Shown one piece after another: positions 1-40,231 of a stretch of DNA of 64,000 bases (positions are counted from its first letter, which is position 1; every line of letters begins with the position of its first letter). Under the pieces are notes generated by a model that had not been told where the DNA came from, made no database searches, and saw only the letters and a list, made by a program, of their open reading frames with translations. The stretch comes from Psammoneis japonica (lineage: Eukaryota). A program made the translations under genes and the position numbers. The stretch spans positions 248,001-312,000 of the forward strand of contig QPGO01000005.1 of the NCBI GenBank assembly GCA_008632985.1, given 5' to 3'.

Positions 1-459
1 CGGTGCCTGCGACGAATAGAGTAATAAAGGTTCCGTTTTTTCACTATCATCCTGATCGTCATTAAGACCCATGGATGCCGGGGCAATCTTGTCTTCTTCT
101 AGATATATTGGCGACGTAGACGAAGCTGACGGCAAACGTCTTCTCGAAGAAAATGCCGACGCCGACGACTCTTCTGGGTATCGAATCGGAGTTAACGCGT
201 CCTGATCCAAAAGCATGTAGCCATGTGACATGTCAACTGGCGTCTCTTCCACCATGACTGCTGATTCTGATGTTGAGTCTTGCGCAATGCAGTTGTTCTA
301 TTGCATCGTTTGACACAGGTAAGATTTCTTTGTCGTTGCCGTTTGCCGTTCCATCCTCGCTGCTCGCTGCGCTCTGGAATCTCCTCTTGTCAGCTTGTCA
401 GTGTACCGTATCGTCATTGTCTGCTCAAACAAGCCATGGCGGGACAAGAAATCATCATG

Positions 460-880
460 AGACATGAACGCGGGGTCCACAGAACTCGAAAGAGGTGCTG
501 CAGGGCTGATCAGTCCACAGCAATGCTGCCATGACTGTTTGATCCTTCTTTGAAAAAAAAAAAGCTCACCTTGCTGCACCCCCACTTCTGAGGTGCAGCA
601 TGATGGGGCACACGAGCACTCGTCGTCCAAGAAGCAGGGGTCATTGTGGCAACAAGACAAGCTGCAGTCACAGTGGTGGCTTGTTGGTGGTTCCAAAGGT
701 GCTGCCCAAACTTTGCAAACTGATGCACCTTCTTTTTGCAGTGTTTTTCTGTGCTGCAAAAAAAGGATGTGTTGGTGCCCCCCCCCCCGCCAGCAGCACG
801 GAGCCACAAGCGCTGAAACTTGCCCAGCTGCCCTCAACTGTGGCAAAAGCTGCAAAAAATTCTTGAGAAGAAAAAGTCAA
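460..880. repeat. Partial copy 1 of dispersed repeat R1
   Basis: Shares motifs such as 'caaaggtgctgcccaaactttgcaaac' and 'tgtggcaaaagct...ttcttgagaagaaaaa' with 4170-4640 and 7800-8250. Confidence 0.75.
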
Positions 881-1399
881 TGAGTTTCATTGACAAGAGA
901 GCTTCAAGAGTCAGTCAGAGGATGCAGATGACTGAGTTCCCAGTTTTGTGCAACAGCGCATCAGAGCGCGCACATTGCAGTGATCGACCCCTCCCTTCTC
1001 ACAGTGATTTTCACTCCTTTTGCAGGTAAATTTTTTGTGGTTTCAAACCTTGTTAGTTGTGCAGCTGGCAACAATCATTTGACTGTGAAAGGTGATTGTT
1101 TTTGCTGTGAAGTCCTCTTCTTAACTGCAAGAAATCAACATCATCAACTTGTTTGGCAGCCTCCCCCTTTTCCCATCAGCATGCGTGCACTCCATTGCTG
1201 CAGAAGCTGATGATCAACATCATTTGTTTTGTTGTGCTACATTTTGATTTTCATGTTCAATGTGATTTGTGCAATGAATTTGTGCCGCCTTTCTCAATCA
1301 ACAATGAACTGTTGCTTTTGCTGCTTCACATGGACTGCCAAGAATGAACACCAAGTTGACATGCCATGGTGTCTGCCACATTTCATTTTCAACTGGCTC

Positions 1400-2601
1400 A
1401 TGCTGGAGTTGCTGTTTGGTCATCTTTGTCATTGGCTTTTTCACTCTCTTTGTCTTCCTCCTCATCTTTTCTGTTGCCAGGTGTTTCTGTTTTGTCTTCG
1501 TCCTCCTCGTCGTTGCCAGAAAGCTCTGTCGTTGCTGGTGTTCTCGTCTCCACCTCCGCTGGTTTTTTGTTGGTTCTGCCCTTTTTCCTTTGCCTTTGCT
1601 CTCCCTTTTCTTTCCATTGGTGCACCATGTGTTGAGCTGCACACCTGGCTCACTTGCCCTGTCTTCCTTTGCTGCACCCCCCCAAGCAGGGCTTTGAGCT
1701 GCTCAATTCCTTCATCCTTTCAAGAGTCGCGCTGCCGTGTCTCGGGTCTGCACACTTGGGCACCAGTTTTGTTTCCTTCTCCTCCTCTTCACTCCCTTTC
1801 TCCTTTCCTTTCTGCATGGCCTTGTGCTCCCAAACCTTCCAGCAGCTTTCCAACATCAACAGCACCAGTGCCTTGTTGCTTGCCACAGCTGGCTCTGCAG
1901 CCTTGGTGCTGCCGGACTGACTTCACCATCCTTCTCCACATCGCAGTGCTCTTGATGCATGTTGGAATGTTGTCATGGAGCCACAGCTGTGTGTGCCTCT
2001 TCATTTGTCTGCTTCTCATGCACAATGGTGCCCCCACTGTCTCATGCTCCCAAGTTGCCAGAAGCTGTTCTTCCATGTCTGCTTGGGCCTTTTTGCCCCT
2101 CTTGCTTTTTTTGGCTCTCTTTGTGGGTTTCTTCCTCCCACAAACTTCCTTGGCTTGTTCTTCTGTCATCATGACTGCAGCAAAACAAGAATCTTGTTGG
2201 CAGCACCACCCAATGCTGTTTTGGAAATGCACCCCGCAGCACTTGCCACTCATCACACTCTTCATTGTTGTCTGACACACGGTGTTTCTTTTCACATTGA
2301 CTGCATTGAGGATGCACTTCTTCGCCCAGTCCTCCCATGACCCTGCTCATTTGCATTTGCTGAACTTGCCATCCACCATGTTTTTCCGCACTGGCCTTGA
2401 CACCTTGCCACCACTTGCCACGCCCACCTTCACAAGGAATTTTGCTTTTGGGGTGACTCTCTGCACCACTTCTTCCACCTCTCTCTTCAGAGATTGGTGA
2501 TCTCCAGCAGCTCCCGCCTGCGGCAACGCTGCTGTTGGCCTTGGGCTGGTTGGTGGTGCCTCTGCCAGCACCCCATGCTTTGTTGCCTTCTTCCTCACCA
2601 T
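1400..2601 (-). pseudogene. Decayed ORF, probably transposon-associated hypothetical protein
   Basis: Protein-like minus-strand fragments in shifting frames (2347-2601, 1789-2295, 1650-1886 'ALVLLMLESCWKVWEHKA...PKCADPRHGSATLE', acidic tail 1398-1628). Family assignment is only an impression. Confidence 0.35.
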
Positions 2602-2837
2602 TGCGTTTGACTCAATGTGTTGTGTTGACTGCTTGCAACTGTTGCAATCGTGTTGTGCAACAGGTCTTCAGAGGAAGACCAATGTTGCAAAAATTTCAAA
2701 CCTCTCTCTTGACATTCAACATGTGACACTCATCCCAATGCTTCTGAATTTTAACCCCCATTCCTTTCAAAAACAATCACAGCTGGAAATGTGCAAGTGC
2801 CCCATTGAATCTCAGACCCGTTGCAGCAGTGGAAATT

Positions 2838-3593
2838 GGGGTGTAATTTGGGGTGCAATTTGGGGGTGTAAAAACACATCGTGCAAATTTGCACCCCAAA
2901 ATTGCACCCAATTTTCTCACAACTGCAAGAGTGTAAAATTGGGTGTCTGCAATTCTGCGAGAAATGACACATGCATTGAATGTGTGCTCCTCAAAAATTG
3001 TTGACAACCAAGCAGGAATGACTCTGTGTCTCCAATTTCAGTCAACTTGCATGTGTGCGAAGCTGAACATTCTGTTGACAGCATCAAAAACACCATGGCA
3101 TTTGGCGGCTCTGCTGCAACCTTGTGCACATCAAATCATTGTTCTGACAAGTCCAGCCCACTCACAACAATGTGATCAACATCATGTGTTGCTGTTGCAT
3201 CCACAGCCAAGGTTTCAGCAACCACATGACATGTTGTTCTTCTAAAATGGCACAAACTGCAGCATGAACTTGCGTTGATTTTGTTGTCCATCAATGGCAA
3301 TCTCATCATTTTTCGCCATTGTTTCTTTCACAAACATGTCACAACAGCTCCCATCAACAAGTTCTTGCATCTTTTGCTGGCTGAAGTTCATCGTTGATTG
3401 TTGGTTGCCATTGTTGTTCAACATTCTGATGTATGTTGCCATCATGGACGATGATGAGTCTGTTTTTGTACAAAAAATTGCAGGCACTTACGAAAAATTG
3501 CAGGCAAAAATTGTGTGCCTCAGGAGGGGCAATTGTTGGCTGCAATTTTTTTAGGGTTTTTACACCCCAAAATTGCACCCCAAATTGCACCCC
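2838..3593. mobile_element. Non-autonomous TIR element (MITE-like)
   Basis: ~38-bp inverted repeats: 2838-2875 ggggtgtaatttggggtgcaatttgggggtgtaaaaac and 3556-3593 gtttttacaccccaaaattgcaccccaaattgcacccc. No TSD resolved. Confidence 0.7.
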
Positions 3594-3614
3594 TTTGTCA
3601 CGACTGGGGTGGGT

Positions 3615-4787
3615 CTCAGGCTCCTGCTTCTGCAAATGACTGCACAAGGCACCACTTCCAAAGATTGCAACAACCAGACATTGATTTTTAACAGCATGGC
3701 AACAGCCCAGGCTTGCACAATGTGATTGTCCCTGTTGGGCATGGAAAGAACAAGAGGGGTTGGAGTTTTGTTTGTGCGCCACAATTGTCCCCGGTTTAAA
3801 GCAAGCATGTGTGCAAAAAGCACAAAATCCAAAAATCCATCAGCTCGATGGAAAAGAAATGCTGTGTCAGCAAACAATTGAAGGACAAAATCAACTGGCA
3901 CTTGAAATGTTTGTGGGGTTGACAACAACCTCAACATGAAAAACCAGCCAATTGACCAGCCGGCCAGGAGTCAAAACGGTGCCCCACCAACAAAAAAACA
4001 GAAATTTGTGTGAAGCCCCAGAGCCTTTCAAAGTCATTGGGTGTTGTTTTGCGCACAAAGACCGCTTGCAAATTTGGTCATTTTAAAAAGAGTTGTTGTC
4101 CCCAAACACCCTGACTTCATCTTCCCCTGTCTGTTTCCAGCCCGGCAGGGGTCAGGGCAGGGGACGGATGCAGATGGACATGAGTGCGGGAGCCCACAGA
4201 ACTCAAAAAATTGCTGCGGGGATGCTCAGCATGCACTGAGTTGGCAATGCTGTTGTGAGTGTTTGGCCCTTCTTTGAAAAAAACTTGCCTTTTTCTTGCA
4301 CCTCCACTTCTGAGGGGTGTCTGAGGAGCATGTCAACCCAAGCTCTCAGAGCAGGCAAGCGCTTCAAGCAGGGGGTGTTGCAGCAATGTTGTTGTGAAAA
4401 ACAAAAGTTGTGGCCACAATGGTGGCTTTTTTGGGGGCTTCAAAGAAAAGCTGTGGCCACAGCAGTGGCTTTTTGGGGGGCTTCAAAGGTGCTGCCCAAA
4501 CTTTGCAAACTGGCGCGTGCAACACCATCTGCAATTTTTTCTGTGATGCAAGAAAGGCTGCATCATCTCTCCAGCACAGTGCCAAGTTGAAACTTGCCTG
4601 GCTGTGGCAAAAGCTCCAAAAAAATTCTTGAGAAGAAAAAGCTTGGGAGAAGCAAAAAATGAGAGAGAAACAAAAAAAAGAAAGGTGAAAAAGAAAAAAG
4701 AAAGGCAGCCCTGCAACACGCCAAGAGGAACATCATCCACCAGCACCGCCCCTGCACTCTGCTGCCCACTTTTTTTTTGTCATCTGC
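3615..4787. repeat. Copy 2 of repeat R1
   Basis: Colinear with 6915-8475 from 'ctcaggctcctgc...tgcaaatgactg' to 'ttttttgtcatc'. Confidence 0.8.
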
Positions 4788-4859
4788 TGCCCACTCAGTT
4801 CGAGAAGAAGCAGGAGAGGCAATGCTTCTCACACAAACCAATGCACAAACCAACATTCT

Positions 4860-6475
4860 TTGTCGTGGCATTTTCACTGTGTTTTCTGCTGCTTGCCATG
4901 TCCGTGCAGTTTTCAATGCATCTTGCAGAAAATTGGCGTTGGTGCAATCGCTGCATTGACACATGCTGCGTTGACTTGCGTTCATTTTTCGACACTGCTT
5001 GGGAGTCAAAAATCAAAACATCATGTCACTGATGAGGGTCTTGCCATTGGCATCATGTGCATGTTCGAATCCGCCAACAGACACAGGCTTCAACATGTCG
5101 TTGTGTGGCTCACGCATGGACACATTGCACAACCATTTGTTCACTCATTTCTTGTTTCCATCTTCATCTTTAATGAGAATCAAGTCTCATGTGTTGGGAG
5201 ACTGCACTGTGTCAGGATGATTTGACAACCAGTGCACAAAAATGCCTTTCGGATCTCAGGGGAAACTTTGTGAGGATGCCGACGGGGTTGCACTGAAGAC
5301 CACATGACATCGTCAGTGTTTGAAATCAAGGCCTCTCTGGCAATCTTTCCCTTCTTCATTTGGCAATGAACAGTGCTCCGTTTCAGGCCAAGTGCCTTGG
5401 TGTAGTCATGGGAAGACAACTTTTCCTCTTCAGCAGATTTTTCTGGTGAACCGGAGATTCCAGTTGCCAGAGCACGGACAAACGATTTTTTGTCATTGGT
5501 GAGGTGTTGACCATTGCTGGTGTTGTTGGCACGTGCCCACATTTTGCCCAACTGCTTGGTGATTTGCAAGGCCACAGAATTTGTTTTCGGCAATGTCAAA
5601 TTACAAGCCTGAAGAAATGGGGCTAACTCGGGAAAATGCAAAGCGTGCACAAAGGCACAGATTTGTTGTTCTTGTGTGGCTGCACAAGACAACACTCCTT
5701 CTCTTGCTTTGACCACTGCACAACAAAGTGCCTGTTGGGGATCTTTGTGGGTTGCTTTGAATGCATGAGGATCAAAAGTGGGGCAACCTTTGGAGGTGGT
5801 GAGGTTGACAGCAGCTTGGTTGGCCGAAGCGACAGAGGGAGTGACGGCGGCATTGTCAGAGTTGGGGTTGGAGGGAGTGGCGGCCACTCCTGCAGTGTGC
5901 ATTTGGGAGGGGCCTGGCTGTCTTGGCAAGGACGACCCTGGACAATGAGTGGGGTGTTCCTTGGAGGTGTTCGGGTTGAAAGCAGCCAGGTTGGTGGGAG
6001 CAACGGAGGGAGTGATGGTGGCATTGTCAGAGTCAGGGTTGGAGGGAGTGGCGGCCGCTCGTGCAGTGTGCATTTGGGAGGGGCCTGGCGGTCTTGGCAA
6101 GGACGACACTGGACAATGAGTGAGGTGTTCTGTGGAGGGGTTCAGGTTGAAAGCAGCCAGGTCGGTGGGAGCAATGGAGAGAGTGACGGAGGCAGCAGAG
6201 CTCGGGTTGTTCGGGTTGGAGGGAGCGGCTGCAGCTCCCTCAGCTGCAGCAACGACATGGGCGGAGACCGTGGAGTGTGTTTCAAGTTCACGACAAGGCT
6301 TCTTGTTTTTGCTGTTGCCAGTCCCTGACTTGTGTTGACAGCCAACTCCATTTTGCTTCTTCCTCTTGTTGCCCACGATGCACTGGAAATTTGATTGAAA
6401 GTGTGCATCGAGAGGGCTGGTGGATGAGACGGACGGCAAGTCGAGAGGACACATTTTTTTGGCGCACTCAATCAA
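4860..6475 (-). pseudogene. Degenerate transposase-like/TE ORF with internal 57-aa repeats and a Cys-rich motif (frameshifted)
   Basis: 431-aa ORF 5180-6475 with an HTH-like 'KALGLKRSTVH' segment, continuing in other frames to 'PKQCRKMNASQRSMCQCSDC'. It interrupts repeat R1. Confidence 0.45.
5803..6230. repeat. 171-bp tandem repeat (~2.5 copies) inside the TE-like ORF
   Basis: 'ggacaatgag' at 5940 and 6111. The peptide TPSNP...SSLPR.PGPSQMHTA is repeated. Confidence 0.85.
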
Positions 6476-6770
6476 ATTAACTGCATTGTGTCTGCAGAAA
6501 TGAGGTGTGTTTGGACGTCAGTTGAGTTGAAGAAGACCAAACACACGAGCTCTGAAAAATGAAAAAGTGAGTGATCACGAGCATTTTTCACGCAGAATGG
6601 GACACCAGCCGAAAATCACATTTGGCACAATTGAGTCCTTCATTTTTGATCATTTCGAAAATCGAAAGGCAAGTGTACACCCGAAAACACATGTGGTGTA
6701 CACTCACCCTTCGATTTGGCAAAAAACGGATTTTGAAAAAGTCATTTGCGCTGAACCTAAAAATGGGCAA

Positions 6771-6812
6771 ATGATGGGAATCGAACCCACACGCGGAGCA
6801 CCTGGAGCTGGA
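6771..6812 (-). pseudogene. tRNA-like remnant (T-arm/B-box only)
   Basis: Minus strand reads gtgtgggttcgattcccatcat, nearly identical to the T arm of the tRNA at 8577-8648. No D arm or A box seen. Confidence 0.5.
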
Positions 6813-6914
6813 ACAGGCCGGAAGAAGCTTGATGACAGGGAAATGAAAGGCATGTCATTGGCATTGAACAAGTTTCTCAATTGCTTCAGATGCACAAGAG
6901 GGCTCCAAGAAGGC

Positions 6915-8475
6915 TCTCAGGCTCCTGCTGCAAATGACTGTGCAAGGCACCACAGCCAAAGACTGCAATCATCAAAGACATTGATTTTCAACAACATGGC
7001 AACAACCCAGACTTGTGTCACATGATTGTCCTTGTCAGGCATGGAAACAAGAGGAGGTTGAGTTTTTGCTTGTGCACAATGATCCCATGTTTGAAGTGAG
7101 CGTGTGTGCAAAAAGTGCAAAATCCAAAAATCTTTCATCAGCTCAATGGAAAAGAAGTGCTGTGTCACACCCACAGTGAAAGGGGGCAGCAAGCAATTAA
7201 AAGACAAAGACAACTGGCACTCAAATGTTTGTGGTTGATGACAACCAACCTGTTTGTTGGGGTCATCCAGTGCAGGTGGGGCACCTCAGCCCATTTCCAG
7301 GTTGCCAGCTCAAGCACGTGTGTGCGGAAAAAGGAAGGGACTCAAACCCGCCCTGACCAAAAACAGCCAATCGACTGGCCAAGAGGAATCAATGGCATCC
7401 CAACCACAAACTGACTGGGGCAAACAGTTTAAAATTTGGCATGTTTTGTGTTTGCTCACAGAGCAATTTGTGTGCAAAATCTCAGAGCCTTTGAAAGTCA
7501 TTGGGTGTTGTTTTGTGCACAAAGACCACTTGCAAACTTGGTCATTTTGAAAGAAGTTGTGTCAACCCCAAACCCAACTTCATTTTCCCCCATGTGTTTC
7601 CGGTCCGAGCAAATGAGCAACTCAAAAATCAGTGCTTCAGGTCTCTGCTGCGCAGCCACCCTGGCACAATGGAGCATGGCTTGCATCTTCTGCCAGGGCC
7701 AAGCGCATCCTGAGCAGACTTGTCAGCCCCAAACCCTGACTCTTTGCCTTCTCCCATCTGTCTCGGCCTCTGGTCCAGTCAGGGTCAGGGCAGGGGGGGG
7801 TGCAGACAGACATGAGCACGAGAGCCCACAGAGCTCAAAGAGTTGCTGCAGGGCTGACCGGCATGCAACAAGTCAACAATGCCGCCATGAGTGTTTGGCT
7901 CCTTTTTGGGAAAAGGTGCACCTTGCTCTTGCACCCCCGCTTCTGAGGGGTGTGCGAGATGGGCATCAACCCAAGCTCTCGCCAAAGCAGGCAAGCACTC
8001 CAAGCAGGAGGTGTTGCAGCGATGTCACCACAAAAAAGAAAAGCTGCAGCCACAGCAGCGGCTTTTTGATGTCTTCAAAGGTGCTGCTCAAACTTTGCAA
8101 ACCAACGCATGTGCAATGTCCTCTTGTTGCAAATCCCTCTGTGCAGCAAAAAAGGCTGCATCATCTCTCCTCCAGCGTGGTGCCAAGTCAAAACTTGACC
8201 TTGCCTCCTGGCTGTGGCAAAAGCTCTAAAAACAATCTTGAGAAGAAAAGGCCTGGGGAAAGCAAAAAATGAGAGAGAAACAAAAAAAGAAAGGCAAAAA
8301 AAGAAGTGCATGAAACAAAAAAAGAAACAGCAGCAACCTTCTGCAAGTTGCCAAGAGGAACAATTTCCTCCACGGCCGCTGCAAGGCAGTCAGCTTCTGC
8401 AAGATGCCAAGAGGAACGATTTCCAGCACAGCCTCTGCACTCTGCTGTCCACGTTTTTTTTTTTTGTCATCCGCT
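6915..8475. repeat. Copy 3 (longest) of repeat R1, running into the tRNA-Arg-like gene
   Basis: Colinear with 3615-4787 and 460-880, with extra internal segments. Confidence 0.8.
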
Positions 8476-8576
8476 TGGGAAGCAGAAGCTTGGTTTTTCT
8501 TTTACGTTCCGCCGGTGCGATGTTTTCTGCTGCCGCCTTGTTTTTTGCTCTTGCTTGCGAGCTCCAAAAGAAGATT

Positions 8577-8648
8577 TTTCGATGATGGGACTCGAACCCA
8601 CAACCTATGGATTAGAAGTCCATCGCGCTACCTTTGCGCCACACCGTG
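8577..8648 (-). tRNA. tRNA-Arg(TCT)-like gene with an imperfect acceptor stem (possible pseudo-tRNA)
   Basis: Minus strand CACGGTG TG GCGC AAAGGTA GCGC G ATGGA CT TCT AA TCCAT AGGTT GTGGG TTCGAGT CCCAT CATCGAA A. D, anticodon and T arms pair, but positions 1:72 and 2:71 do not. A TTTT run follows about 8 nt downstream. Confidence 0.8.
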
Positions 8649-9989
8649 CATAAGGTGGTTTTTCAGCTACTTAAACTTTCTCCCAGCCTCTGCCAACGGG
8701 CAGTTTTCGTGTTCTCCATCAGCAGTTTTAAATGGGGGTCACACGTCCCCACGTTTATCCAAAAATTACCGTGGCATTTGAATTGCCGGTGGGATTTTAC
8801 GGTCTTCATTTTTGAACACAAAAATCATTCACACTTTCACACCCAATCGTGGTCGTGCACGAAAATGAGAACATCGGGTGCCACGATCCAAGCGCGCCAT
8901 CATGACGACAGTCGTGGATCTCTCCAAAGCATGGTGGGCAGTTCACAAACATTTGGTGTGTGTGTGTGTGTGTGACCTTCAACACAAAACAAGCACAATG
9001 TGTGCAAGAGTTGACAAAGCCTCCCCCCCTTTCATGGACTTGTGGCTTGCTGTTTTCACTGCGGCGCCGGGGCCTGGCAAAACTCAAAAAATCATGTGAG
9101 TCGCTGGCCACCCAGAATTTGGACACAACAGCTCATGATTTTCAGCTGAAAAAAGTTTGCCGCACTTGCAACATGCCAGCAATGGCATTTTCAGATGATG
9201 CAGCAGGTGAGTGCAAAGAAGTGTTGCCGCCTCTGTGCTCGCTTTGCTTCAGAACATTGCTCTCTGTGCAAAAGATGACTGACATGGTGTGACAGTGTGG
9301 TGGCAGAATGCTGCATTTTTGAGAAAGGTCTGTGCATGTGAGCTGGCACTGACACAACTGCCCACACCACAAAAGTGCACACTCATGGCTGCTGCTGCTT
9401 TTTTTCTCATCAAGCGCCACAAGAGACCAGAGACAAAGGGTGAAAAGGCGCCAAACAGAGTCATGAAAAGGCGCAAATCTCTGAAAAGAAGATGCCTTCA
9501 GCGGCATTGCACCAAGCCAGAAGTGGTGCCAATTGTGTTGGATTTTGGACTCATGCTCTGAGTTGTGTCAGTTTGTTGTGCCATGCCAAGAGCCGTGGTG
9601 ACAAGTGACAAGCCTCCAATGGCAGACACTGACTTGCCATTGAATGACTCTCAAGACAGGTCTCAAACCAGTGTTCATTCTGTCCAAGAATTGTCAAATG
9701 GCTTCCTTGAGACACCAACATGTGTCAGAGTCTGATGCAGCTGGCTGACAAGCACTTGGAGCCAGTTGCAAGAGGGTTCTCTCATCAAGCATTGAACATG
9801 AAGGTTCTGGGCATGACAAGAAAATGAATCAAAGCACACAATGAGCTCAGTTGGAACTGTGGGATGGTTCATCAAAATGTTTGTCTCAGTGCACCTGTGA
9901 TGCACCTTTTTCCAGCCTTTGCATGCAGGCAGCTCTCGTGTGTCCTCCATCCAGCCACATTATTTTGTGTGTGTTGGACATGAAACAAC

Positions 9990-12900
9990 TTGTGTGTGTT
10001 GGACATGAAAAAACACATCAAATGGAAAAGAATGCTCGGCAATGAACTGTGTGTTAAAAATGACACAACAAATTCTCACAAGGATCAGCAAATCATGCTG
10101 TGGCAGGTGAGGCTCTGCAGCCCACCACAGGTGGGAAAAAAGCTGGTCGACCGGCTTTTCTTGAGGTCCATTTTGAGTGTTGAGCTGGCACCACTTTCTG
10201 CACAAAGCTGCAGGGCTTGGAACCATTTTTCAAGATGCATGAGATGACAATCAAAATGCCACAAGACCAAACTCTTTAATCACTTTTGACCAACCATGCT
10301 GGGAACAATCTGTGCACAAGAGTTGCAGGTTGTTGCAGTGATGTCAGGTGCATTGTCTCAGAAAGCTGTTGCACAGAAATGCACAGCACAATTTGAGCCA
10401 GAAAAAAGAGCAAACAAGAGCATTTTTTGGATGGGTTCTGTGACATTCTCTCCCATGAAAAGTGTGCCAGAAAATTTGTGAGCAAACCAAGCATCTTTTC
10501 ATGCACAGAACTCCTGCATGGAAACATGCCAGCTTGGCTGGCTTTTTTCCTCTGACCGGCTTTCTTCTTGTCTGTGGCAATCTGTGGTCAACATGTCTCC
10601 CTTTCTGCTTGTGTGGCAGGCACAACTCTCCCTTGTTCCTTTGTGGGTGTGCTTCACCTGCACATGCACCTGCGGACAAAAAAAGACACTTTTGCAATTT
10701 TTGCATGGCCAACAACTTGTGATGATGAGGCTGTGTTTTGAGTGGAAAACAATGTCTCCACTTGTCTGCAGCCATTTTGGTGTGCTGCCAAGGACAAGAG
10801 CTGCTGCACAGCAAGCAAAAACTGGTGGCTGCTCCTCATTTCCCATCTTTGTTGAGCCAGACTGCTGCACCACAACCCAAAGGATTGTTGATCTTGAGAG
10901 CAAAATTTTGTCTGCACTTGCGAGCAAAAAAAAATTGACAGAAGCTCCTCTCAGCTCTTGTTGCTCAAGCACTTGTTTGGGGGGCACAGTGCTGCAAATC
11001 AGATGGTTGTTTTTGCCTTGCACAAAGAGTGCTTTGAAGCTGGTGACAAAACTTCTCATGCCAGCACAACATGAGTGGAAATGACTTCATGCACTGAACC
11101 ACATTTGGAGAGCTCTGCATGGGTTTCTCTTGACTTTGTGGCTGCAGAAGTGGTGCCAGCAGATGGTGCTGTAGAGTGTGAAAGAATGATGTCTCATGTG
11201 CTTTGAAAAGAAAATGGCAAACTGTGGTGCGCACAATGCTGAAATGGACCTGTTGCACTCAACAGGTTTTGCAGGTCTTGTTGGCACATGTCTCTTGAGA
11301 AAGCCAGCATGCAAGGTTGCAAAAGCAGATCTGCATGACAGAGAAATGTCCATGTGAGCTGAGCCAGATGCAACAGATTTTTGGTGTCATTTTCATGTTG
11401 AATGAATTTAGAGTGGGTGGTCAAAATGCCCTGAGAGCAGGGTGCAAAAACTTCTTCTCTCTTTCTCTCTTCAAAGTTGCTGAAAGAAAATCACCACAGG
11501 GGTCATCTGCAGTTGTTGACCTGACCTGAGCACAAAAGAGAAATGGTCTCCACAGACCAAGTTGATGTGCCAGTCCCAGCGGCATCATTTTTGTTGCCAC
11601 AAAGTGCTGGAAAGTGACTGCTGCTGTGAGCGGACATGTTTGCTGTCATGTCTGGCATTGCTTTGGGTGTTTGCTTCTCATCAAGGATGTGTGCCCCCCT
11701 TGGAGTTTGCACAAGGCAATTTTTGACACCAACATTCCAGATGATTGACTGCACTCAAATGCCAACAACATCATGTCAGTTGATGCAATTGTCATGGCGC
11801 GCATCACCCACCTGGCTGGTGTGCTGGAGCATGTCTGTGCTGCTGTGTGAACAAGTCACCAATGTTTGTCACCCTTGTTGCGAAACAAAAAGCAGCACTT
11901 TTGCTCCTGTCAGATGCTGTTCTGTGAGAGATGTTCTGAACAAAGTGCTTCATCTCATTGTCAAAGAGAGTTTTCTTTGTGGCAGGCAAGGCTGCAATCT
12001 GGGGAGGGCAGCACATCTCACTCACAATCTGGGGGGGGGGGGGGCACATCTCACTCTCTGCTGTCAAGTGGAGAACAATGCCCTTGCTCTTTTGTGGTTG
12101 CTTTGGTGCACCAAGACAAGACCTGCTGAGCAGCATGCCAAAAAAGCCAGTGGTTGATCCTCAACTCCTGTTTTCATTGTGCAGTCTGTGTCACAAACAA
12201 GAAAGTGTTGTTGGTTTTGAGAGCAAAGTTTTGTTGTTTGTCCTTGTGGGCAAAACATTTGAAAAAACTTTCAGCTCTTGCTCAAACGCTTGTTTGTTGG
12301 GGGAGCACAATGCTGCAAATCAGATGTTTTCTTTCTTGCCTTGCACAAGAAAGAGTGCTTTTGAACTTGGAACAAAACTTCTCATGCCACAAAACATGCA
12401 GAAATGACTTTGTGCTCTGCGCAGATTGCCTGGCATGTGTTTTTGAACAAGTCACTGTGGCAGTGTGCAGCTGCATTTTTAACAACTTCCTTGTCTTAAC
12501 TTTGTGACTGCAGAAGTGGTGGCAATCAACAGTGTGCAGTGTGCTGGACATTGCATGTTTTGAGGAAGTGGCAAACACACAGGTGCATTTCTGCACTGGG
12601 GTGGGCCTTCTGTGCATTCAAAGGATTTTGCAGGTCTTGGCATGTCTCTTGAAAGTCAGCATGCTGGGTTGCCAAAGCGGTTCATCTGCAGCGGAGGAAA
12701 ATGACCATGAGCTGACTCAGATGTGGCAGATTTGATGGCACTGTTTTTGTGTTGAATGACTTTGGAGCAGGCCTCAAAACAGCCTGAGAACAGCACAGTG
12801 CAAAAACTTCTCTCTGACCTCCTCTCTTGAAAGTTGCTGAAATCACCATGGTGAGGGTCACACGTGGTTGTTGACCTGGACAAAAGAGAAATGTCACCTG

Positions 12901-15900
12901 CAGACCAAGCAAAATGTGCTGGCTCCAATGGTGTCATTTCATTGGTGCAGCAAGCTCATGTTCACTGTCATGCTGGGTGTTGCTTTGGTGGGTGTTGTTT
13001 GAAATGATTGGCGCTCCTGTGGCTGCTCAAATGCCAACAACATGTCAGTTGACAAAATTGTCATGGTGTGCAAATTGCCTGGCACTGGAGCATGTCTGTG
13101 TCACTGTGAAGCTGCCCCTTTGTTGCCCTTGTTGACTTGCAAAACAAAAAGAAGTGCTTTTGCTCCTTTCCACATGCCAAAATTTGTTCATCGTGGGCTG
13201 CTCTCTGATGTGATGCTGTTCTGCCAGAGATGGTCCATGCACAAATGCTTTGTCATCTCAAGTGGGGTTTGCCATTTTGTTGTGTCCGCAAGCTTTTGCA
13301 CAGCTCCAAAAATGCCATGTGCAAAGCAAAGTGCTCTGACACAAACACTTTGCACAACTTGCACCACATGCTTGAAATGAGGGCACACTCCAATGCAACA
13401 AGCAAGATCCTCTTTTTTTTGGTGTTTGTTGTTCTGAGAATGAGGAGATTCAACCCCAACACAAAGTGTTGTTGAATTTGAGAGCCAAGCTTTTTGTGTC
13501 CTTCTTGTGGGCAGACAAATTGACAAAATTTTCCAGCCACATGAGTGCCTGGTCATCAAGATTTTGCAAACACAGCAACTCAACAGTGTGCCTTTTGCAC
13601 TGCACAAAAAGTGCTTTTGATCTGGCAATGAAAGTGCTCATGCCAGCAGATGCATGAGGAACTGTGCACACCTCAGTCTGTGGTGACACCGCTCTTTGTT
13701 TGTTTTTGGCATGTGGGCCCAGCTGTCAACAACATTGGGTTGCTGCTGTGTGTTTGTTCAGTGCAGTGAGTGCCAGCACATGCTGGTGGCTGGCAAACAC
13801 TGCAACAAAAAAAGCAAGCCAAACAAAAAATGCGCAGCAATTTTTTCATGCCCCCCCCCCCCCCCCCATCGTAAACCCCAACAAGTGCTCACAAAAGGGC
13901 CAGCAAGTGGTGCTGTCATGGGATCTGCAGCAGCAGCCTGAAAGTGCAGCAGCAAACAGCCTCAAAATGTGGAAGTCCATGCTCTTCCTCTGCAGCGCTG
14001 CTGTGGAGTGGCTCTGGCACCTTTGTTGTTCCCATCATTGCAAAATGAAAAGCAGCACGTTTGCTCCTCTGTGAGCCCACCATTGGCAGAATTTTGTTCA
14101 TCATGGGAGAGATTCTTTCTGACATGGAACAAAGCTGCTTTGACAAATGTCACATGATCTGAGCAATGCTCTGTTGTTGTCCAACAGAATTTTGCACCTT
14201 GTGCACAGCATGAAAAACACCCCGCAGTGCAAGTGCCCCACAAGAGAGTCAAAACAGCCCCTGACTTGCCTTGGCTGCTCAAGAAACAAAAGCATTTAAA
14301 AGCAGATGCTTTGCATGATTCCCTGAGTGCTCTGCTTTGGAGTGTGCACTCAAATGCACCAGGTGAGAAGCTTTTGGACAACTCACAAAACCAGGCTTTC
14401 TGTGCATGTTCACACATCAAGCACAATTGCTGCCAAGTCTGCACAAGAAAAATGTGAGAGCTCACATCACAAATGACATGTGCACCCCACCCCAAAAATG
14501 GCACCATGCTGCATCCACAAACTTGGGTGCACTCTTCACAAACCAACACACCCACCTGGGTCAAAAAACAAAGAGCACAGTGATGACTTGGCTTGGTTTC
14601 ACTGCAGGATTCCCCCAAAACTCTCTGAGATTGCCACCTCCTTTTGCCGTGATTTTCCATGGGAAGCATGATTTCCGGGGGGGGGTGCCACAAATTGTGC
14701 TTCACTGCATGCATGCTGCACACATGAATGAAACATTTCACATTGGGAATTCCCCATGCTTCCCTCTTGTGCATTTCTGCACCTTCTGCATGCCGGAACA
14801 CAGGAGCCAGCAAGGATCAGTGAGTCCATCAGGATGTGCAAGCTCCAGCCCAAATCCACGTGTGAGAGCCTGTTGCCGTGCATGGTGCAAACACTGTCAA
14901 ACTTTGCACAGGAATTTGCAGAGGCCTGCGTCAAGCTTCTGATGGGACAAACTTGACATTAAAAATTGTAAAAAACATTGACAACTTTCATTTCCAGAAA
15001 TGTTCAAAAGTTCTGGCGGAAGAATGACAGATGCCATTTTTCCAGAACTTTTGCCTTTCACATGTCAACGCAATTGAAAACACATTCACACACAATGATG
15101 TCAGAGTTTGCGCCATCAAGATCACTCAAAGACTTGTTGTCAAGCATGGCAACACATGTTCCATGCAGCTTGCATGTCCTGATGAACTCACAAATCCTTG
15201 GGAGCCAGACAATCGACCAACCCCGCAACAAAAATGGGCAGCATGCCATGGTGTTCACATCCCATCCATGACAGCTTTTGTCCATCAATCATGACACTGT
15301 TCACTGCATTCAATGACATTGATTGAACGGGGCCCACAGCATAAAATGCATGCTGAGGTGTGATTGCTCATGTGCAAAATGCCAGAGCAAATTGAGTCAT
15401 CAGTCGTCAGTTGTTCTTTTGTCGTGCAGCCCAAAATGCAGGCGACAAGGCGTGCATTGAAGGCCAAGGCAAAAGCAGAACCGTGCATGTCCAATGGCGA
15501 CAATGTGGCAGATTGAATGTTCACCCTCATTCTTCCAATTCACACATCTCATGTGCAAAATGAAGGGGGTCATTTGGATTGCTCCTTTGTCATGCACTCA
15601 GAAAGGCAAGCCATGAGGCGTCTGAAGTGAAGGACAAGGCAAAAGTGTGACTGCACATGGTTGAAGAAAATGTGGCAGATTGATTGACAATGATTGTTCT
15701 TCCCTTTGACCCATCTCATGTGCAGAACAAAGTTGATTTTTCCCTTTCTTGTGTTGTGTGGCCCCAGCAAATGCAAACAGCAAGTGCTCTGGAACAAAGG
15801 CTGGGGCACAAATGGAGCCGCATGTGAGCAATGTCAATGTGCATGATTCAACAGCAAAGAGATTGTTCTTCCCTTGCTCTGCCACAGTCCAAGGGGCCGC

Positions 15901-18900
15901 GTTGTGTTGATTTGTCGATGCATCCATGTCATGGTCGTTGTCCCGCTGGATGAAACAAGATGAAAGCACCGCCGCCCAACCCAAATGAAATGGGAGCTGC
16001 CGCAATGCACTCATTTTTTGTTCCCCTCCTTGAGCCCTTTCAGTCATTCCTTTCTGCTGAATTGCCCTCATTTCCTGGGGATTCTCCAAAAGGGCAAGGC
16101 AATCCCCCCTTGCCCTTGCCATTTTGGGGAATCCCCAAATGGATGATGAAACCAAGCTGAGAGTGATGACAGAGGTGCAAGCGACATTGCTGCTGCCAAT
16201 TTGGCGACATTTTCAAATGTTGATTTTTGCTGCTTGCAGGGCATCATTTTGAGCCTCTTGACCCAAGGCATTTCTGATGTTTCTTTCTCTTTCTCAAGTT
16301 TCACAGTGGGACTAAAAAACACTCAAGCCCTTTTCCAGCCTCTGCGCCCAAAAGTGGTTTTCATGTTCTCCATCCAATTGCTTCAATTTGTGTGTGTTGG
16401 GCACAAAAAAAACATCAATGTCAAATGACGAGCTGGCTGTGTGTCAAAAATGATGCAACAAATTGCAGCAAGCATCAGCAAATGGTGCACCTCCCTGCCT
16501 CTTCACTTGCCATGAGGTGCAAGAAATCTCCATTGCTCTTTTGTGGGTGTGCTCCAGCCACGCACAAAAGCGTGCATTAAAAAAAGACATTGTTCTGCAA
16601 TTTTTGCATGGTTGCCAACTTTCGATCAGACTGTTGAGCAGAAAACATGTGGCTGATTTGGTGTGCTGCCAACAAGGCCCCCCACATCATGCAAGCAAAA
16701 ACGCTGCTCCTCATCTCCCATTTTTGTTGTGCCCAGCTGCGGCATCATGGCACAAAGGGTCATTGACCTCAAGAGCAAAGTTTGGTTTGTGTCCTTGTGG
16801 GCAAAAAAACTGATGGAAGCTCCCAGCTCTTGTTCACACATTTGTTCATGCACTGGGGGGCCCACAACACTTGCAAACTGGTTTTTTTATTGCCTTGCAC
16901 AAAGAGTGCTTCCAAACTGGTGACAAACTTCTCATGCCACAAGACATGTGGAATCTGCATGGATTGCTGCACGTTTTTTGCACAAGTGGCAGCAAAACAG
17001 TGCGCAATTGGCTTTGGCAACTTTTCTCAACTTTTTGACTGCAGAGGTGACAGTTTTTGCAGGACTTGTTGATGCATCTCTGGAAAGGAGCCAGCACACC
17101 AGGTTGCCAAAGCAGATCTGCAAGACAGAAAAACATCCATGTGAGCTGAGTCAGATGTGGCAGATTTGATGGCATCACATTTGTGTTGAATGAATTTAGA
17201 GTGTGGGGTCAAAATGCCCTGAGAACACAGCACAATTTTTTTTTCTCTCTCTCTTGAAAGTTGCTGAAAAATCACCACGGGAGGTCATTTGCAGTTGTTG
17301 ACCTGAGCACAAAAGAGAAATGGTGTCCACAGACCAAGCAAAATGTGCCAGCTCCAATGGCATCATTTTTGTCACCACAAAGTTAAAAGTGGCCACTGTT
17401 GTGCAGTGCAAACATGTCCATTGTCATGCTGGGCACTGCTTGTTTGGGTGCAATTTGCTTCTTGTTGTTGAGGACATGACCCCCTTGGAGTTTGCACAAG
17501 GCACAAGGCAATCAACTTTTTGATGCCAACATTCTGGGTGATTGGCTGCACTTGAATGCCAAGAACAGCATGTCAGTTGATGCAATTGTCACAATGTGCA
17601 TTGCCGGCCTGGCGCTGGAGCATGCATGTGCTGCCACAAAGAAGTCACCTGCCTTTGCCACCCTTGTTTCAAAACGAATTAGCGCCTTTCCAATGCTGCT
17701 CTGCAAGATGTGTTCTGAACAAAGTGCTTCATCATCATCAAACAGAATTTGTTTTTTTGTTGTGCACAGGTGCTTTTGTGCAGCACCAACAATGCCCCAC
17801 GACAAATGCTGCATGAGATGCAAAAACAACCCCTGGCTTGTTCCAGCCATGTGCAAAGCAAAAGTGGTGGAAGCAAAGCTGACATTTTGCACAACTTTGC
17901 ACATGTTCTGCAGCAGGCAAGCAAGGGTGCACTCCAACACAGGCAAGACCCTTCTCTGTGTTGCAAAGCACTCATTTTTGGGTGCTTGTTTGTTCTGAAC
18001 AAGGAAACTCAAAACCCCAGCACAAAGCATTGTTGATTTTGAGAGCAAAGCTTTGTTTCTTGTTCCCACGGACAGACAACCAACAAGTTTTCCAGCAGCT
18101 GCACAAAAGGCTGGTCATCAAGAATTTCTTGCAACACAACAAAATTTGCAGGAGCACACTTTTTGCATTGCACAAAGAGTGCTTTTGACCCAGTGACAAA
18201 AATGCTCATGACAGCAGACAAATGCAAGGACCTTTTGCACACCTGGGCTCTGCACATGGAGCTCTGTGTGAAAGAAGTGTCGCCACAGCAGCGTGCAACC
18301 AGTTGCCAGGATCAACTGCAATCAGCCTCACTTTGATTGCAGTTGCTGTCACAAACTCAATTGCAATGACCTGATTGTCGGGAAAGAGCCAAGAGGTTGC
18401 AATCACAATCAACTGTTGCAATCGATTGCAGTCAAAATTTGAGCTCTTTTTCCAGATGAAATCAGCAAAATGGCTCAGCTTCTTTGCCTGTGGTGGGCTT
18501 CTTCCTTTTCTCCTGCATGAAGTGTGCTCATGCACAAAGGGTGCCCCTGCATGGGGGGTGCACCTGGCCGGCAGGGTGGTTGCAGTCACGATTGCAGCCA
18601 ATCTGTTTGTCAGACCATGCAATTGCTGCGCGACTGCAATCAACCAATTGCTGCTCCGCAGTGATGCAATCGACTGACTGCAATCTGATTGCTGCTGAAA
18701 ACTTTGCAGCTGGTCAACACTGGTGCACAGTTGTTTTTGACAATTTTTTTGACTTTGTGACCACAGAAGTGGTGCCAGCTGACAAGGTCATGAAGCCAGC
18801 ACAGCTTGTGCTGCGCAAAAGGAAATGGCAGAACACTGCGCAGCTCTTGCCAAAATGTTCTTGTTGTGCTCTACAAAGTTTTTTTGTGTGTTGTGCCACG

Positions 18901-19720
18901 CGCAAACAAGCCAGCATGCATGGCTGAGGTGGTTGAGCTGAACCAGCATGACACATCAGCAGCCATGTGGCCTGACTCGTCCGCCTCTCAGGTGTGCAGA
19001 AAATTTGATGTGGGGGCTCATTTGTGCACAAGTTTTTTCAGAGTGCAAGAGCAAGGGGCAAAATGGCTCAAGAAAAGAACACAAAAACTTTCATTTGAAA
19101 GTTTCTGAGAAAACACTTTTCAAGTCTGTCACTGCTGTGCTGGTCAAAAAAAAAATGGCCAGTTCAGACAGCATCATTTTTGCTGTCATGAGGCAGAATT
19201 TTGACTCAGCTGTGGGAAGTCATCATGTCAATTGTCCTTGCTGTTTGTGCTGTGCTGGGCACTTGCTTCTCTGTGCTGTTTTTCTTGTCACATGCTGCAG
19301 CTGTGGTGCAATGAACAATGGCAATCTTGGGCAGACATGCACGCTGCATGAGAAAAAAAAATGACACAAAATTTGTCGACTTTTTTGCATTTGATGCCTC
19401 CATTTCACACACAGAAACACGAGGTTGTCACACATTGGAGAAGCGCAAAAAAAAAGATCAGGTGGAAAAGAAAGAGCACAAGCCAGTGCAACAAGCACAC
19501 TTGCAAAGACAAACACAGCAAGTGCTTTTGCACACCACATCGCTGCAAACTGCCACAGAGCAAGTGTCATTTTTGCTCTTTTGTGCCTCTCTGCCGCCGT
19601 CATTGAGAGATGTGCTTTTCTTTGGAGGGGCTTTGTTTTTGTTGTGGCACTTTTGTGCTGCACCTGAGTGTGTGCACTCACACCAAAGTCCTGTGATGTC
19701 ATTCTGAGAGATGTTCTGAG
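9990..19720. repeat. Array of diverged ~1.3-kb units (at least 5 copies), possibly a decayed tandem gene family
   Basis: Marker 'ttg..(t)tgagagcaaag' near 10885, 12208, 13469, 16761 and 18030. Marker 'tgcacaaagagtgctt' near 11020, 12343, 13601, 16896 and 18169. Segments near 9990 and 16390 also match. Confidence 0.75.
18300..18722. mobile_element. MITE-like element with palindromic subterminal motifs (hAT-like ends)
   Basis: Ends cagttgccag / ctggtcaacactg. Many tgcaatc/gattgca motifs, including gcaatcgattgc at 18418-18429. It interrupts one array unit and is flanked by a repeated gtgca. Confidence 0.5.
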
Positions 19721-20375
19721 CAACGTTTTGCTGTGGTCAAACATGATTTTGTGTTCACAGGTTTTCACAGTGCTGGGAACACCACCCTGCACAGCAGGTG
19801 CTTGAAGAGAGGAAGGGCCCCACACCTTTCCTTTTGGCAATTCTCCAACCTGTTGTCCAGCCCCAAGAAGGGTGAAGATTGATGGTCAATGCTCCCCGGC
19901 AGGACTGTTTCACGCACCTTTAGCAATGGTGCATCCGATGTTTTTACGGTGCAGTTAGTACAGCACGGTGTTGCCGGGGACAAACAGAAATGAGAGATGA
20001 CATAAATCTTTGCCGATTTTCGTTAAAAGACATTTTGGATCGAGAATTCTGGGACTGATTTCCAATGTGCACAGGTAGCACACGTGGAAAAGACAAAAGC
20101 AAAATATCACCGAAAACCTTATTTTTTAATGCTCTAGCTGTTTATTACTTATTGAGGGACATTTAGATTGCTGACTGTCAAATACGAACAACTGCGCAAG
20201 TCACAGAAATGAAGGCAAACACGCGAAGTCGTCATTCTACCGAATTTCAGCCGAAGACAACATTATGGATACTAGTGTCGTACCTAAAGGGGAGGAAAGC
20301 TCACATTGATTGCCGGTAGCACGACTACGTCTCAATTCGCGATTTACCACATCGTGCATCCAACAATTTTTCACG

Positions 20376-31159: not shown

Positions 31160-31290
31160 ACTGTGATGCGTGATGCGAATGGCGAATGGGCACAGAAAGA
31201 AAGCAAGGAGCGGATGGACGGACAGCCTCTCACGTCTGAAAAGCGCGGGAAACCGTACAACGTACAGACCCCAAAATTTGACGCACGTTG
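31160..31290 (+). promoter_or_regulatory. Promoter-proximal segment duplicated at 43505-43640
   Basis: Identical 30-bp core gggaaaccgtacaacgtacagaccccaaaa at 31247-31276 and 43596-43625. Lies about 190 bp upstream of TFIP11. Confidence 0.65.
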
Positions 31291-31626
31291 TCTTCGCTCT
31301 TCCATGAACATGAGGATGATGAGACATGGTCCATTGGAGCAAAGCGAGGACAGGAAGTGGAAGTTTATCCTGGAGTTGTTGTCAGTCAAAAATCAAGCAG
31401 AGAAAAGTGGCCTCAGATTCTGGAAAATGTTTGTCATTTGAAAACCCAAAAACAGGCAGGAAACGGCGAAAACGGAACAGTGCAAAAGGCGCGCAACACA
31501 GTCATCCCTGTGACGCAACCAAGACGGATGACCGGACCTACAGTATCTACTTCTATCGGAGCGATTGATGCACCATGATGAGCGACGGAAGTTCGTTGTC
31601 CCCGTCGCCCCGTTGCTGCTAAAACA

Positions 31627-36379: not shown

Positions 36380-36830
36380 TGCAATGTGCAGCTGCCAATG
36401 AGAGTCAATGCATCACGGCGACGTGTCACAGCCTTTAAATGTCACAAAGGGCGTGACAAAAGTGACCTTTTGTCTGCATGCATGCTGCGTTGTGAATTCA
36501 CAGCGGGGAGTGGTTCATCGTATGACCATCAGGCAGGAGGCCAGGGGTTCGAAACCCTGAGTGGGAGTTGTCTGCAGCAACGTTGATCACTGTCGAACGC
36601 GCAAAACTCTGTGCAGTTCTGCATGTTCCTTCGCACGCACCCACACTGTTCCGCCAAAACCGTGCAGTGTCAGCACACGTTAGTAAAGAGCCGCATGGAC
36701 GCGTGACACATGGGGAGGAGTGCAATGTGCAGCTGCCAATGAGAGTCAATGTGTCACGGCGACGTGTTGCAGCCTTCAAATGTCACAAAGGGCGTGACAA
36801 AAATGACCTTTTGTCTGCATGCATGCTGCA
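36380..36830 (+). mobile_element. TRIM-like miniature LTR retroelement (110-bp LTRs, 231-bp internal region)
   Basis: Direct repeats 36380-36489 and 36721-36830 (TG...CA in the 3' copy). PPT ggggaggag directly before the 3' LTR. 4-bp TSD caaa (36376-79 / 36831-34). Absent from the paralogous site near 42058. Confidence 0.85.
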
Positions 36831-39792: not shown

Positions 39793-40026
39793 CCCTGCAC
39801 AAGAAGTCTGGAATGTTGAGCTGCGTAGAAACCGTCGTAGAGTCAGCACCAGGGTGGTCAAAAAAGTCTGGAACATCCGATTTTGACAAAAAACACGCAG
39901 AATCTGGTGCAGAGTCAGTGCCAGGAACATCCAGAAAAACATGAAAAATCCCGCTGTTCCAGACTTTGTTGGCTTTTCTGGTGCAAATTCTACGCAGGAA
40001 TGACATTCCAGACTTTTTGTGTCGGG
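39793..40026. mobile_element. MITE (234 bp) with ~38-bp imperfect TIRs
   Basis: Left ccctgcacaagaagtctggaatgt...ctgcgtagaa, right ttctacgcag...acattccagactttttgtgtcggg. Flanked by ca/ca. Absent from the paralog near 43330. Confidence 0.75.
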
Positions 40027-40195
40027 CAGCTTGGGGGGCACAAAGACTTTAAAGAAGGTGCAGGCCTTGAGTGGGTTGATGGAGTTGGCACCAAGGATTG
40101 GCAGCAGTGCCCAGCTTCTTGCAGCAGCACTTGCGGCCAAGAGCTGCCAGGAGCTGCTTGTGTCCATCTGTTGCCTCAGGTGGGGGGGGGGGGGG

Positions 40196-40231
40196 NNNNN
40201 NNNNNNNNNNNNNNNNNNNNNNNNNNNNNNN
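40196..40231. other. Assembly gap after a poly-G run
   Basis: 36 N characters. Confidence 0.99.

Follow-up and report, generated by a model that had tools for sequence, protein, structure and literature searches.

In a 64,000-nucleotide stretch of the genome of the diatom Psammoneis japonica (assembly GCA_008632985.1, contig QPGO01000005.1, positions 248,001 to 312,000; hereafter the window), the dinucleotide TpA has been almost completely erased from two repeat-rich blocks. TpA is lost by A:T to G:C transitions on either strand, which leave TpG or CpA in its place. The observed/expected ratio (O/E) of TpA is 0.04 in the cores of the blocks (~200-19,900 and ~31,800-43,550), compared to 0.56 in the genic flanks. 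New here is TpA hypermutation in a diatom, close to saturation, together with CpG loss and a quantitative flank rule. Composition, repeat copies and a decayed gene support a directed change of TA to TG or CA as the source of the TA deficit, rather than drift. The affected DNA is divided as follows:

200 to 19900 (no strand): block A, repeat-rich; in its core (1000-19900) TpA O/E is 0.04, CpG O/E 0.27 and TG/CA O/E ~1.8
31800 to 33500: transition zone to the left of the block B core; TA O/E 0.14, CG O/E 0.66
33500 to 43550 (no strand): block B core; TpA O/E 0.04, CpG O/E 0.16 and TG/CA O/E 1.8-2.0

Across 1-kb intervals of ~1,000-20,000 and ~32,000-43,500, TpA O/E ranges from 0.01 to 0.17, CpG from 0.03 to 0.67 and TpG/CpA from 1.4 to 2.0. 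The rest of the window is gene-dense, with TpA O/E of 0.43-0.80, CpG of ~1 and TpG/CpA of ~1.1. A total of 62 TAs are left in 1000-20000 and 40 in 32000-43500, 25-30 times fewer than base composition predicts. AA and TT are not depleted in the blocks (AA O/E is 1.14-1.43, and 1.13-1.19 in genic DNA) and AT is just slightly down. TA O/E below 0.25 combined with TG/CA above 1.4 is found in 59 of the 125 intervals of the window. The same signature occurs in none of the 1,114 1-kb intervals of 80 unrelated metagenome loci (618 kb) taken as a negative control; these loci are the surroundings of D-lactate dehydrogenase relatives, many of them bacterial, and repeats rarely assemble in metagenomes, so that the control says little about other diatoms.

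The right edges are sharp, at ~19,900 for block A and ~43,550 for block B, each within ~100 bp. The left edge of block B is a gradient of ~2 kb, along which TA O/E falls from 0.38 (31300-31800) through 0.14 (31800-33500) to 0.04 in the core and CG O/E from 0.80 through 0.66 to 0.16, TA dropping faster than CG. Unique non-coding DNA immediately beyond the block edges retains normal TA. Long open reading frames (ORFs) of up to 445 codons run through all six frames in 1000-20000 and 33500-43400 owing to the absence of TAA and TAG. Gene callers would predict too many genes in such blocks, and transposons and pseudogenes would escape homology searches as Tyr turns into Cys or His and Arg into Cys, His, Gln or Trp.

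Three comparisons give the direction of the change. The first is bulk composition. Per kb, the blocks hold 2.9 TA, 13.2 CG and 225 TG+CA, the genic DNA 38.1, 56.8 and 139, and the totals of pyrimidine-purine (YR) steps are nearly equal (241 in the blocks vs 234). The gain in TG+CA (86) exceeds the loss of CG (44), so the loss of TA (35) is needed to account for it as well.

The second comparison is among repeat copies. Self-comparison of the window yields 18 repeat pairs of 66-94% identity, with 793 transitions and 398 transversions between the copies. Among dinucleotides, the most frequent mismatch is CA aligned to TG in the other copy (146 sites). Besides these double differences, the aligned YR sites comprise TG/TG (598), CA/CA (461), CA/CG (41), CG/TG (36), CG/CG (10), TA/TG (9), CA/TA (8) and TA/TA (1); TA thus faces TG or CA 17 times and never CG. 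CA opposite TG implies an ancestral TA or CG that was hit on opposite strands after the copies separated. Copies elsewhere in the genome, assembled from the one public sequencing run that contains the stretch and is probably the source of the assembly, were compared at 34 places, leaving out six at 14970-15006 that come from one divergent contig. At four places or more (2293, 6593, 16059 and 18350), 92-100% of the other-copy depth is TA and the window reads CA or TG; at nine or more further places among those listed, the other copies read CG. Eight single-copy differences from the window are among the places listed; four are exchanges between CG and TG or CA, and none changes a TA.

The third comparison is with protein homologs, made possible by a decayed gene on the left border of block B:

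31582 to 31911 (+): weak remnant of a ubiquitin-like domain (PF00240, E=0.002, below the cut-off)
32166 to 33158 (+): decayed gene of a conserved protein family, within the transition zone; E<=0.001 for 45 homologs, best E=4.6e-47

When the ORF at 32166-33155 is aligned to 13 homologs, three columns occupied by Tyr in 11, 8 and 9 of the 13 read TGT (Cys, 32610), CAC (His, 33030) and CAT (His, 33048). The family ends in ..GDY-stop; the window copy ends in ..DC followed by CAG, so the stop has been lost and the reading frame continues (our placement of the last three C-terminal columns differs by one position from the MAFFT alignment). Conserved Arg has become Cys (TGT) once and His (CAT) twice. 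Compared to neighbouring genes, the ORF is poor in Tyr (0.3% vs 1.9%) and rich in Cys (5.2% vs 1.0%) and His (5.2% vs 2.5%). The one Tyr codon that was kept lies in T-TA-C, at a column with Tyr or Phe in the homologs. Other conserved residues are also gone (C177N, P190N, H218Q and others), and the ORF is therefore probably a pseudogene. The PF00240-like weak match is also present in the best homolog (P0242), and 31582-31911 is probably the N-terminal part of the decayed gene. In this family the N-terminus is ubiquitin-like, the middle is rich in Cys and the C-terminus reads ..DDGDY; the main part belongs to no Pfam family.

Sites were hit independently of one another, and so were copies. Adjacent double differences are not coordinated by strand (71 are concordant, 57 discordant; p=0.25), and the TG share per 500 bp in the blocks stays within the genic scatter. 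Strand-coordinated clusters of the kind left by a processive single-strand deaminase were not found in the blocks. Uncoordinated, strand-mixed hits are hard to reconcile with one-strand RNA editing or with a processive activity on exposed single-stranded DNA. Over 3,980 sites that are not YR steps, 407 transitions and 398 transversions separate the copies, or ~5% transitions per lineage, and 93-96% of TAs are gone in the blocks. By our estimate, TA changes at least ~30 times as fast as the background of transitions in this DNA; the figure is a minimum, TA loss being saturated.

The surviving TAs are a strongly biased sample. An initial annotation of the window had noticed that the rare remaining TAs are mostly TAA or TTA, often TTAA. 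Within the range it covered (1020-18880) this is true of 47 of 58. All 20 surviving positions that it listed in the two blocks are TTAA; six more TTAA sites lie at 5171, 6478, 8672 and 8729 (block A) and at 32954 and 36436 (block B). Over both blocks, TAA/TTA makes up 77 of 102 survivors vs 520 of 1,220 genic TAs in the window (Fisher odds ratio 4.1, p=1.5e-10). Depletion is also unequal among the NTAN contexts, as the annotation had expected: when the 83 TAs surviving in the cores (1000-19900 and 33500-43400) are sorted into 10 strand-symmetrised classes, they depart from the genic proportions with chi2=168 (df 9, p=2e-31). There are 25 TTAA where 3.7 are expected, and no ATAT where 4.9 are expected. 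The ranking of contexts is identical whether counts are normalised by base composition, by genic NTAN or by TG+CA sites with the same flanks within the blocks.

The rule is described well by a model in which the two outer neighbours act independently. It was fitted to 72 TAs and 6,438 TG/CA sites with matching flanks in the blocks, leaving out an island of normal DNA around a tRNA gene that is described below. The model improves greatly on no rule (chi2=72.5, df 3, p=1.2e-15) and shows no lack of fit relative to the saturated model (chi2=4.2, df 6, p=0.65). According to the base 3' of TA (or the complement of the 5' base), the odds of retention are 10.7 for A, 4.4 for G, 3.6 for C and 1 for T. 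Two independent half-sites are the outcome expected from separate attack on each strand. The influence of A reaches beyond the nearest base: at +1, +2 and +3 the share of A beside survivors is 56%, 54% and 40%, compared to 27-28% beside TG/CA sites (p=7e-15, 1e-11 and 0.013), with nothing past +3, which makes it an A-tract/T-tract effect. Retention accordingly ranges from 0.43% (15/3,467) without a flanking A to 10-20% with A-runs on both sides. Unlike in the earlier formulation that an A followed by A resists mutation, the effect is graded by base rather than divided into A and non-A, and it extends to +2/+3.

That formulation is also inseparable, from survivors, from its mirror image that a TA preceded by T resists. 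TA being self-complementary, survivors look alike whichever side protects, and it takes the product (TG or CA) to tell the two apart. Relative to genic DNA as a proxy for the ancestral state, the share of TG in the gain is 0.26 where A lies 3' and 0.62 where T does. This bulk composition favours the nearest-neighbour reading, although the proxy is a poor one, with CG-derived products mixed in and gains exceeding losses by ~700 in G..C and C..C contexts. Polarised single events are about evenly divided. The nearest-neighbour reading is favoured by four pair events, the Tyr codon at 32610 and a set of GGGTG-YR-A units described below, which are not mutually independent. In favour of the far-side reading are at least three other-copy sites (2293, 16059 and 18350), one pair event and the Tyr codon at 33048.

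CpG is lost in the same blocks, where its O/E is 0.16-0.27 and CG is aligned to TG or CA at 77 sites. The CpG deficit is matched by the TpG/CpA excess in the repeats, and conserved Arg has changed to Cys and His. CpG survivors are non-random with respect to their flanks (chi2=58, p=3e-9), but the effect is weak and opposite to that at TA: CGA/TCG is retained least, and the other flanks have odds of 1.3-1.6. No TCG bias was found among the 77 polarised CG events. Because its flank rule differs from that of TA, we assign the CpG loss to deamination of 5-methylcytosine (5mC) in the same domains, which is the most likely explanation. In Phaeodactylum tricornutum, diatom transposons are reported to be CG-methylated by DNMT5a (PMC9998398). 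We had considered the transition zone (31800-33500) as evidence that TA loss is separable from CG loss and dropped this argument, since the retention ratios also fit one dose acting at two rates.

Parts of block A reach 10-90 times the single-copy word depth (~60-70) in the sequencing run. The low-copy parts of block A (7905-14544) and the gene remnant at the edge of block B are as strongly affected as the repeats. None of 156 ORFs of at least 90 aa (12 + 144) from both blocks has a significant Pfam match; because no transposon or viral protein is recognisable, it is by copy number that the blocks are classed as repeat or foreign DNA. The following features lie within them:

2838 to 3593 (no strand): short element with 38-nt inverted repeats; arms 2838-2875 and 3556-3593, 95% complementary
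8503 to 8798 (no strand): spared island in block A, 296 bp, with normal TA and CG density; holds 11 of the 62 TAs of block A
8577 to 8648 (-): tRNA-Arg(TCT) gene predicted by ARAGORN, in the centre of the spared island
11262 to 11973 (+): direct repeat, 74% identical to 17050-17750 (+), 5.8 kb apart
34570 to 36117 (+): direct repeat, 74% identical to 40383-41879 (+), 5.8 kb apart
40196 to 40231: assembly gap of 36 N inside a block B repeat

About 150 bp upstream and 75 bp downstream of the tRNA gene are spared with it, so that the island looks protected. As the upstream ~150 bp are included, the process may have been kept out locally, by an active and open tRNA locus, instead of selection acting on the tRNA alone.

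The initial annotation had spoken of a terminal inverted repeat and a long terminal repeat (LTR). A 38-nt inverted repeat and two pairs of direct repeats 5.8 kb apart do exist; what is missing for these labels is a transposon protein. The pair 11262-11973 and 17050-17750 possibly represents an old LTR pair and differs by 90 transitions and 37 transversions, with 22 CA/TG double differences; the pair 34570-36117 and 40383-41879 differs by 180 transitions and 75 transversions, with 34 such doubles. In the arms of the short element, which are built of GGGTG-YR-A units, TA units stand opposite CA units; the cluster as a whole has TA in three units, CA in five and TG in none. A GTAA at 2843 was correctly noted to face GCAA in the partner arm, and the palindrome GCAATCGATTGC was located at 18418. 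The annotation took the gcaa and tgca motifs to fit the same change of TA; they may also derive from CG, which is lost in the same blocks under another flank rule.

Block A also contains a tandem repeat of 171-bp units, 82-86% identical, at 5777-6237, whose word depth of ~2,000-2,400 corresponds to roughly 30-40 copies. Unmutated direct repeats of ~90 bp (85% identical) lie at 31201-31291 and 43550-43641, outside both ends of block B and the decayed gene, and a second repeat (40232-40362 and 43458-43583) links the interior of block B beside the N gap to its right edge. These repeats may reflect a segmental duplication or the ends of a large insertion.

We propose that a domain-restricted process converts TpA and CpG, the self-complementary pyrimidine-purine steps, into TpG and CpA in two repeat-rich domains of a diatom nuclear genome. 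All named homologs of a D-lactate dehydrogenase fragment and of a 991-residue HAT/RRM protein encoded in the window are from diatoms; the best matches of these two genes carry no species label and are 75% and 46% identical. The TpA component would be the work of an enzyme, which we infer from the sequence, that deaminates adenine in DNA at 5'-TA to inosine, read as G. It would act on each strand separately and in silenced, repeated chromatin, as proposed for the chlorarachniophyte alga Bigelowiella natans. The outer neighbours would set its rate: a 3' A (or 5' T) protects, a 3' T (or 5' A) exposes, and G and C lie between. Survivors of the TTAA type would then be the slowest substrates, joined by an occasional back-mutation. 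We consider it probable, with considerable room for doubt, that the blocks record domain-restricted adenine deamination at 5'-TA on either strand of silenced repeats, together with 5mC deamination at CpG.

Several observations weigh against this proposal. The stretch was found in one sequencing run, itself probably the source of the assembly. The blocks contain no recognisable transposon or viral protein. A single process acting at two rates could have removed both TA and CG (log-retention ratios of 0.3-0.7 across regions). The polarised events are split over which outer neighbour matters, and since one aligned TA is common to both copies while 17 are in one copy only, some survivors may be new. 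The initial annotation read the context rule as the signature of an enzyme rather than of drift; a directed change of TA to TG/CA and an orderly flank rule bear it out as far as drift is concerned, but the dependence on A-tracts out to +3 could reflect slow base-pair opening, a matter of DNA mechanics, instead of contacts made by an enzyme. It also took the A to be the mutated base, and this goes further than sequence allows, because sequence cannot separate deamination of A from a lesion on its paired T.

This last point leads to a rival that we find unlikely, in which the attacked base is thymine. A dioxygenase or another activity on 5-methylpyrimidines would modify T at TpA (for example to 5-hydroxymethyl- or 5-formyluracil, mispairing with G) and 5mC at CpG by one chemistry. 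T to C on one strand is A to G on the other, and all of the sequence results fit equally well. In both targets a 5-methylpyrimidine precedes a purine, and the two disappear from the same domains. Oxidised thymine does mispair, and in some protists hydroxymethyluracil is found preferentially at TpA. The opposed flank rules are harder to reconcile with a single chemistry: a 3' A protects TA, yet it is the worst flank for CG. An account without any dedicated enzyme, which we regard as somewhat less likely still, holds that slow spontaneous decay over very long periods in unrepaired methylated heterochromatin depends on context, and that the opening of TpA steps sets the rule. Alternating ATAT opens easily and A-tracts are stiff, and the effect reaches +3 and scales with the length of the A-run; the copies are old, having diverged by ~20% outside YR sites with about as many transitions as transversions; and the hits are uncoordinated single-site events. 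Spontaneous adenine deamination is not known to produce a TA-specific rate of at least ~30 times background with sharp edges, however, and TA is normal in the unique non-coding DNA beyond the edges and in the 150 bp upstream of the tRNA. Moreover, according to the B. natans preprint, the same signature arises there in bursts and in some lines only.

About as improbable is an equilibrium explanation, which concerns the flank rule only. Here the original TAs are nearly all gone, and the present ones are mostly new, produced by C to T changes at abundant CAA/TTG beside A/T runs. CAA/TTG is indeed the most abundant product trinucleotide in the blocks, and the ratio of one shared to 17 unshared aligned TAs points the same way. 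The range of retention, from 0.43% to 10-20%, nevertheless persists after division by TG+CA sites in matching contexts, no extra terms are needed for the half-site model to fit, most other family copies carry TA at four sites at the least, and the Tyr codon T-TA-C kept in the decayed gene stands at a Tyr/Phe column of the homologs. Two further explanations are very hard to credit. If retroelement transcripts had been A-to-I edited by an ADAR- or ADAT-like enzyme and copied back into DNA, the 5' T would find a parallel in the 5' U preference typical of RNA adenosine deaminases, which the discussion of the B. natans preprint also mentions; but TG products and CA products occur side by side on one strand and equally often, copies were hit in place after duplication (the 146 double differences), the remnant of a cellular gene, a short element with inverted repeats and non-coding DNA in the flanks have been affected too, and the edge gradient argues for action on chromosomal DNA. 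An artefact, either modified bases miscalled in sequencing or assembly or the conversion chemistry of a library, draws on the fact that a single run, possibly the source of the assembly, contains the stretch. Independent k-mer contigs of that run have an even word depth of 55-70 and agree with the window to within 0-3 differences over 550-4,251 nt; such contigs would need accurate reads, in which modifications should leave the calls unchanged. The 36-N gap suggests a short-read scaffold, and many diverged copies elsewhere in the genome share the signature.

The genic part of the window has features of its own. Two ORFs contain in-frame tandem duplications, at 54407-54778 (186-bp units, 89% identical) and 21885-22040 (78-bp units, 92% identical). 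At 24106-26215 (-), two adjacent ORFs match successive parts of the choice-of-anchor I domain profile and probably represent one gene split by an intron or a frameshift.

To our knowledge, dinucleotide-directed natural mutation of adenine in DNA was unknown before the 2026 B. natans preprint. The same signature in a diatom would extend TpA hypermutation to a second major marine algal lineage and suggests a common, overlooked genome defence. The four half-site odds, independent for each strand, are a footprint that any candidate enzyme must reproduce. The joint loss of CpG raises the question of whether it shares targeting or chemistry with the loss of TpA. A bolder reading, which we hold to be doubtful, is that diatoms have a chromatin-targeted editing defence in which a single dual-specificity activity erases TpA and CpG from silenced repeats, with ATAT going fastest and TTAA slowest. 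The activity might be an ADAT2/TadA-like deaminase of A and of C or 5mC, or an enzyme acting on the 5-methylpyrimidines T and 5mC. If this were true, then together with B. natans it would make TpA editing an ancient and widespread genome defence of the SAR (Stramenopila, Alveolata and Rhizaria) supergroup. For base-editing technology, too, an enzyme from nature acting on A in double-stranded chromosomal DNA would be of interest.

Set against known mutational spectra, as the initial annotation had suggested, the contexts found here match neither ADAR nor Pol eta, and they differ from amphioxus ADAT2 in the adenine context. ADAR acts on double-stranded RNA with a preference for a 5' T/U, favours a 3' G and disfavours a 3' U. 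ADAR-type hyper-editing was rejected, since TG lies mixed with CA, mutability is highest with a 3' T, and G equals C. The WA mutagenesis of Pol eta changes A to G at TA and also at AA; it was rejected as well, AA being undepleted in the blocks (O/E 1.14-1.43). Fungal repeat-induced point mutation (RIP) offers a closer parallel in its pattern, since it too is a transition hypermutation of repeats, independent for each copy, that spills over into adjacent single-copy sequence. The CpG component also resembles the TpCpG form of RIP in basidiomycetes, in that TCG/CGA is the most depleted, although the TCG bias is weak. Unlike the present case, RIP consists of C to T changes only and creates TpA in ascomycetes, whereas A to G destroys it here. 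The spectrum of RIP is thus not the one found here. Diatoms are reported to encode DNMT4 relatives of the RIP enzyme RID, of unknown function (PMC9998398).

The ADAT2 of amphioxus is reported to change A to G and C to T in DNA, preferring C at 5'-TCG and A at 5'-GAA in E. coli (PMC10354150), and thereby shows that a dual editor of A and C in DNA is biochemically possible. Its cytosine context agrees weakly with ours; its adenine context is GAA and not TA. It is not known to be linked to repeats, and nothing connects an ADAT2 homolog to the locus described here. Literature searches found no paper on TpA depletion or hypermutation in diatoms.

The closest known system is that of B. natans. Mettrop et al. 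(bioRxiv 10.64898/2026.01.13.699255) report that 231 of 302 new mutations in accumulation lines fell into integrated giant-virus and virophage regions, that 230 of these 231 were A to G or T to C, all at TpA, and that an ADAT2 homolog is the proposed agent. The same preprint describes a long-term footprint of clustered 1-kb windows, depleted in TpA and enriched in CpA+TpG, in transposon-type or unannotated sequence. The words CpG, flank and context are absent from its main text, and its supplementary site tables may contain flank data. The two cases differ in lineage, B. natans belonging to the Rhizaria and the diatom to the Stramenopila. They differ also in degree, the present blocks being near saturation with an O/E of 0.04 vs 0.45 for the giant-virus region of B. 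natans, and in the co-depletion of CpG by C to T changes, which the main text of the preprint does not report. What they share is the core of the phenomenon: A/T changes to G/C at TpA, giving TpG or CpA according to the strand, which is the TA component seen here, and the changes are confined to domains that lie beside normal DNA, in our case with sharp edges, normal genic neighbours and high copy depth of parts of block A.

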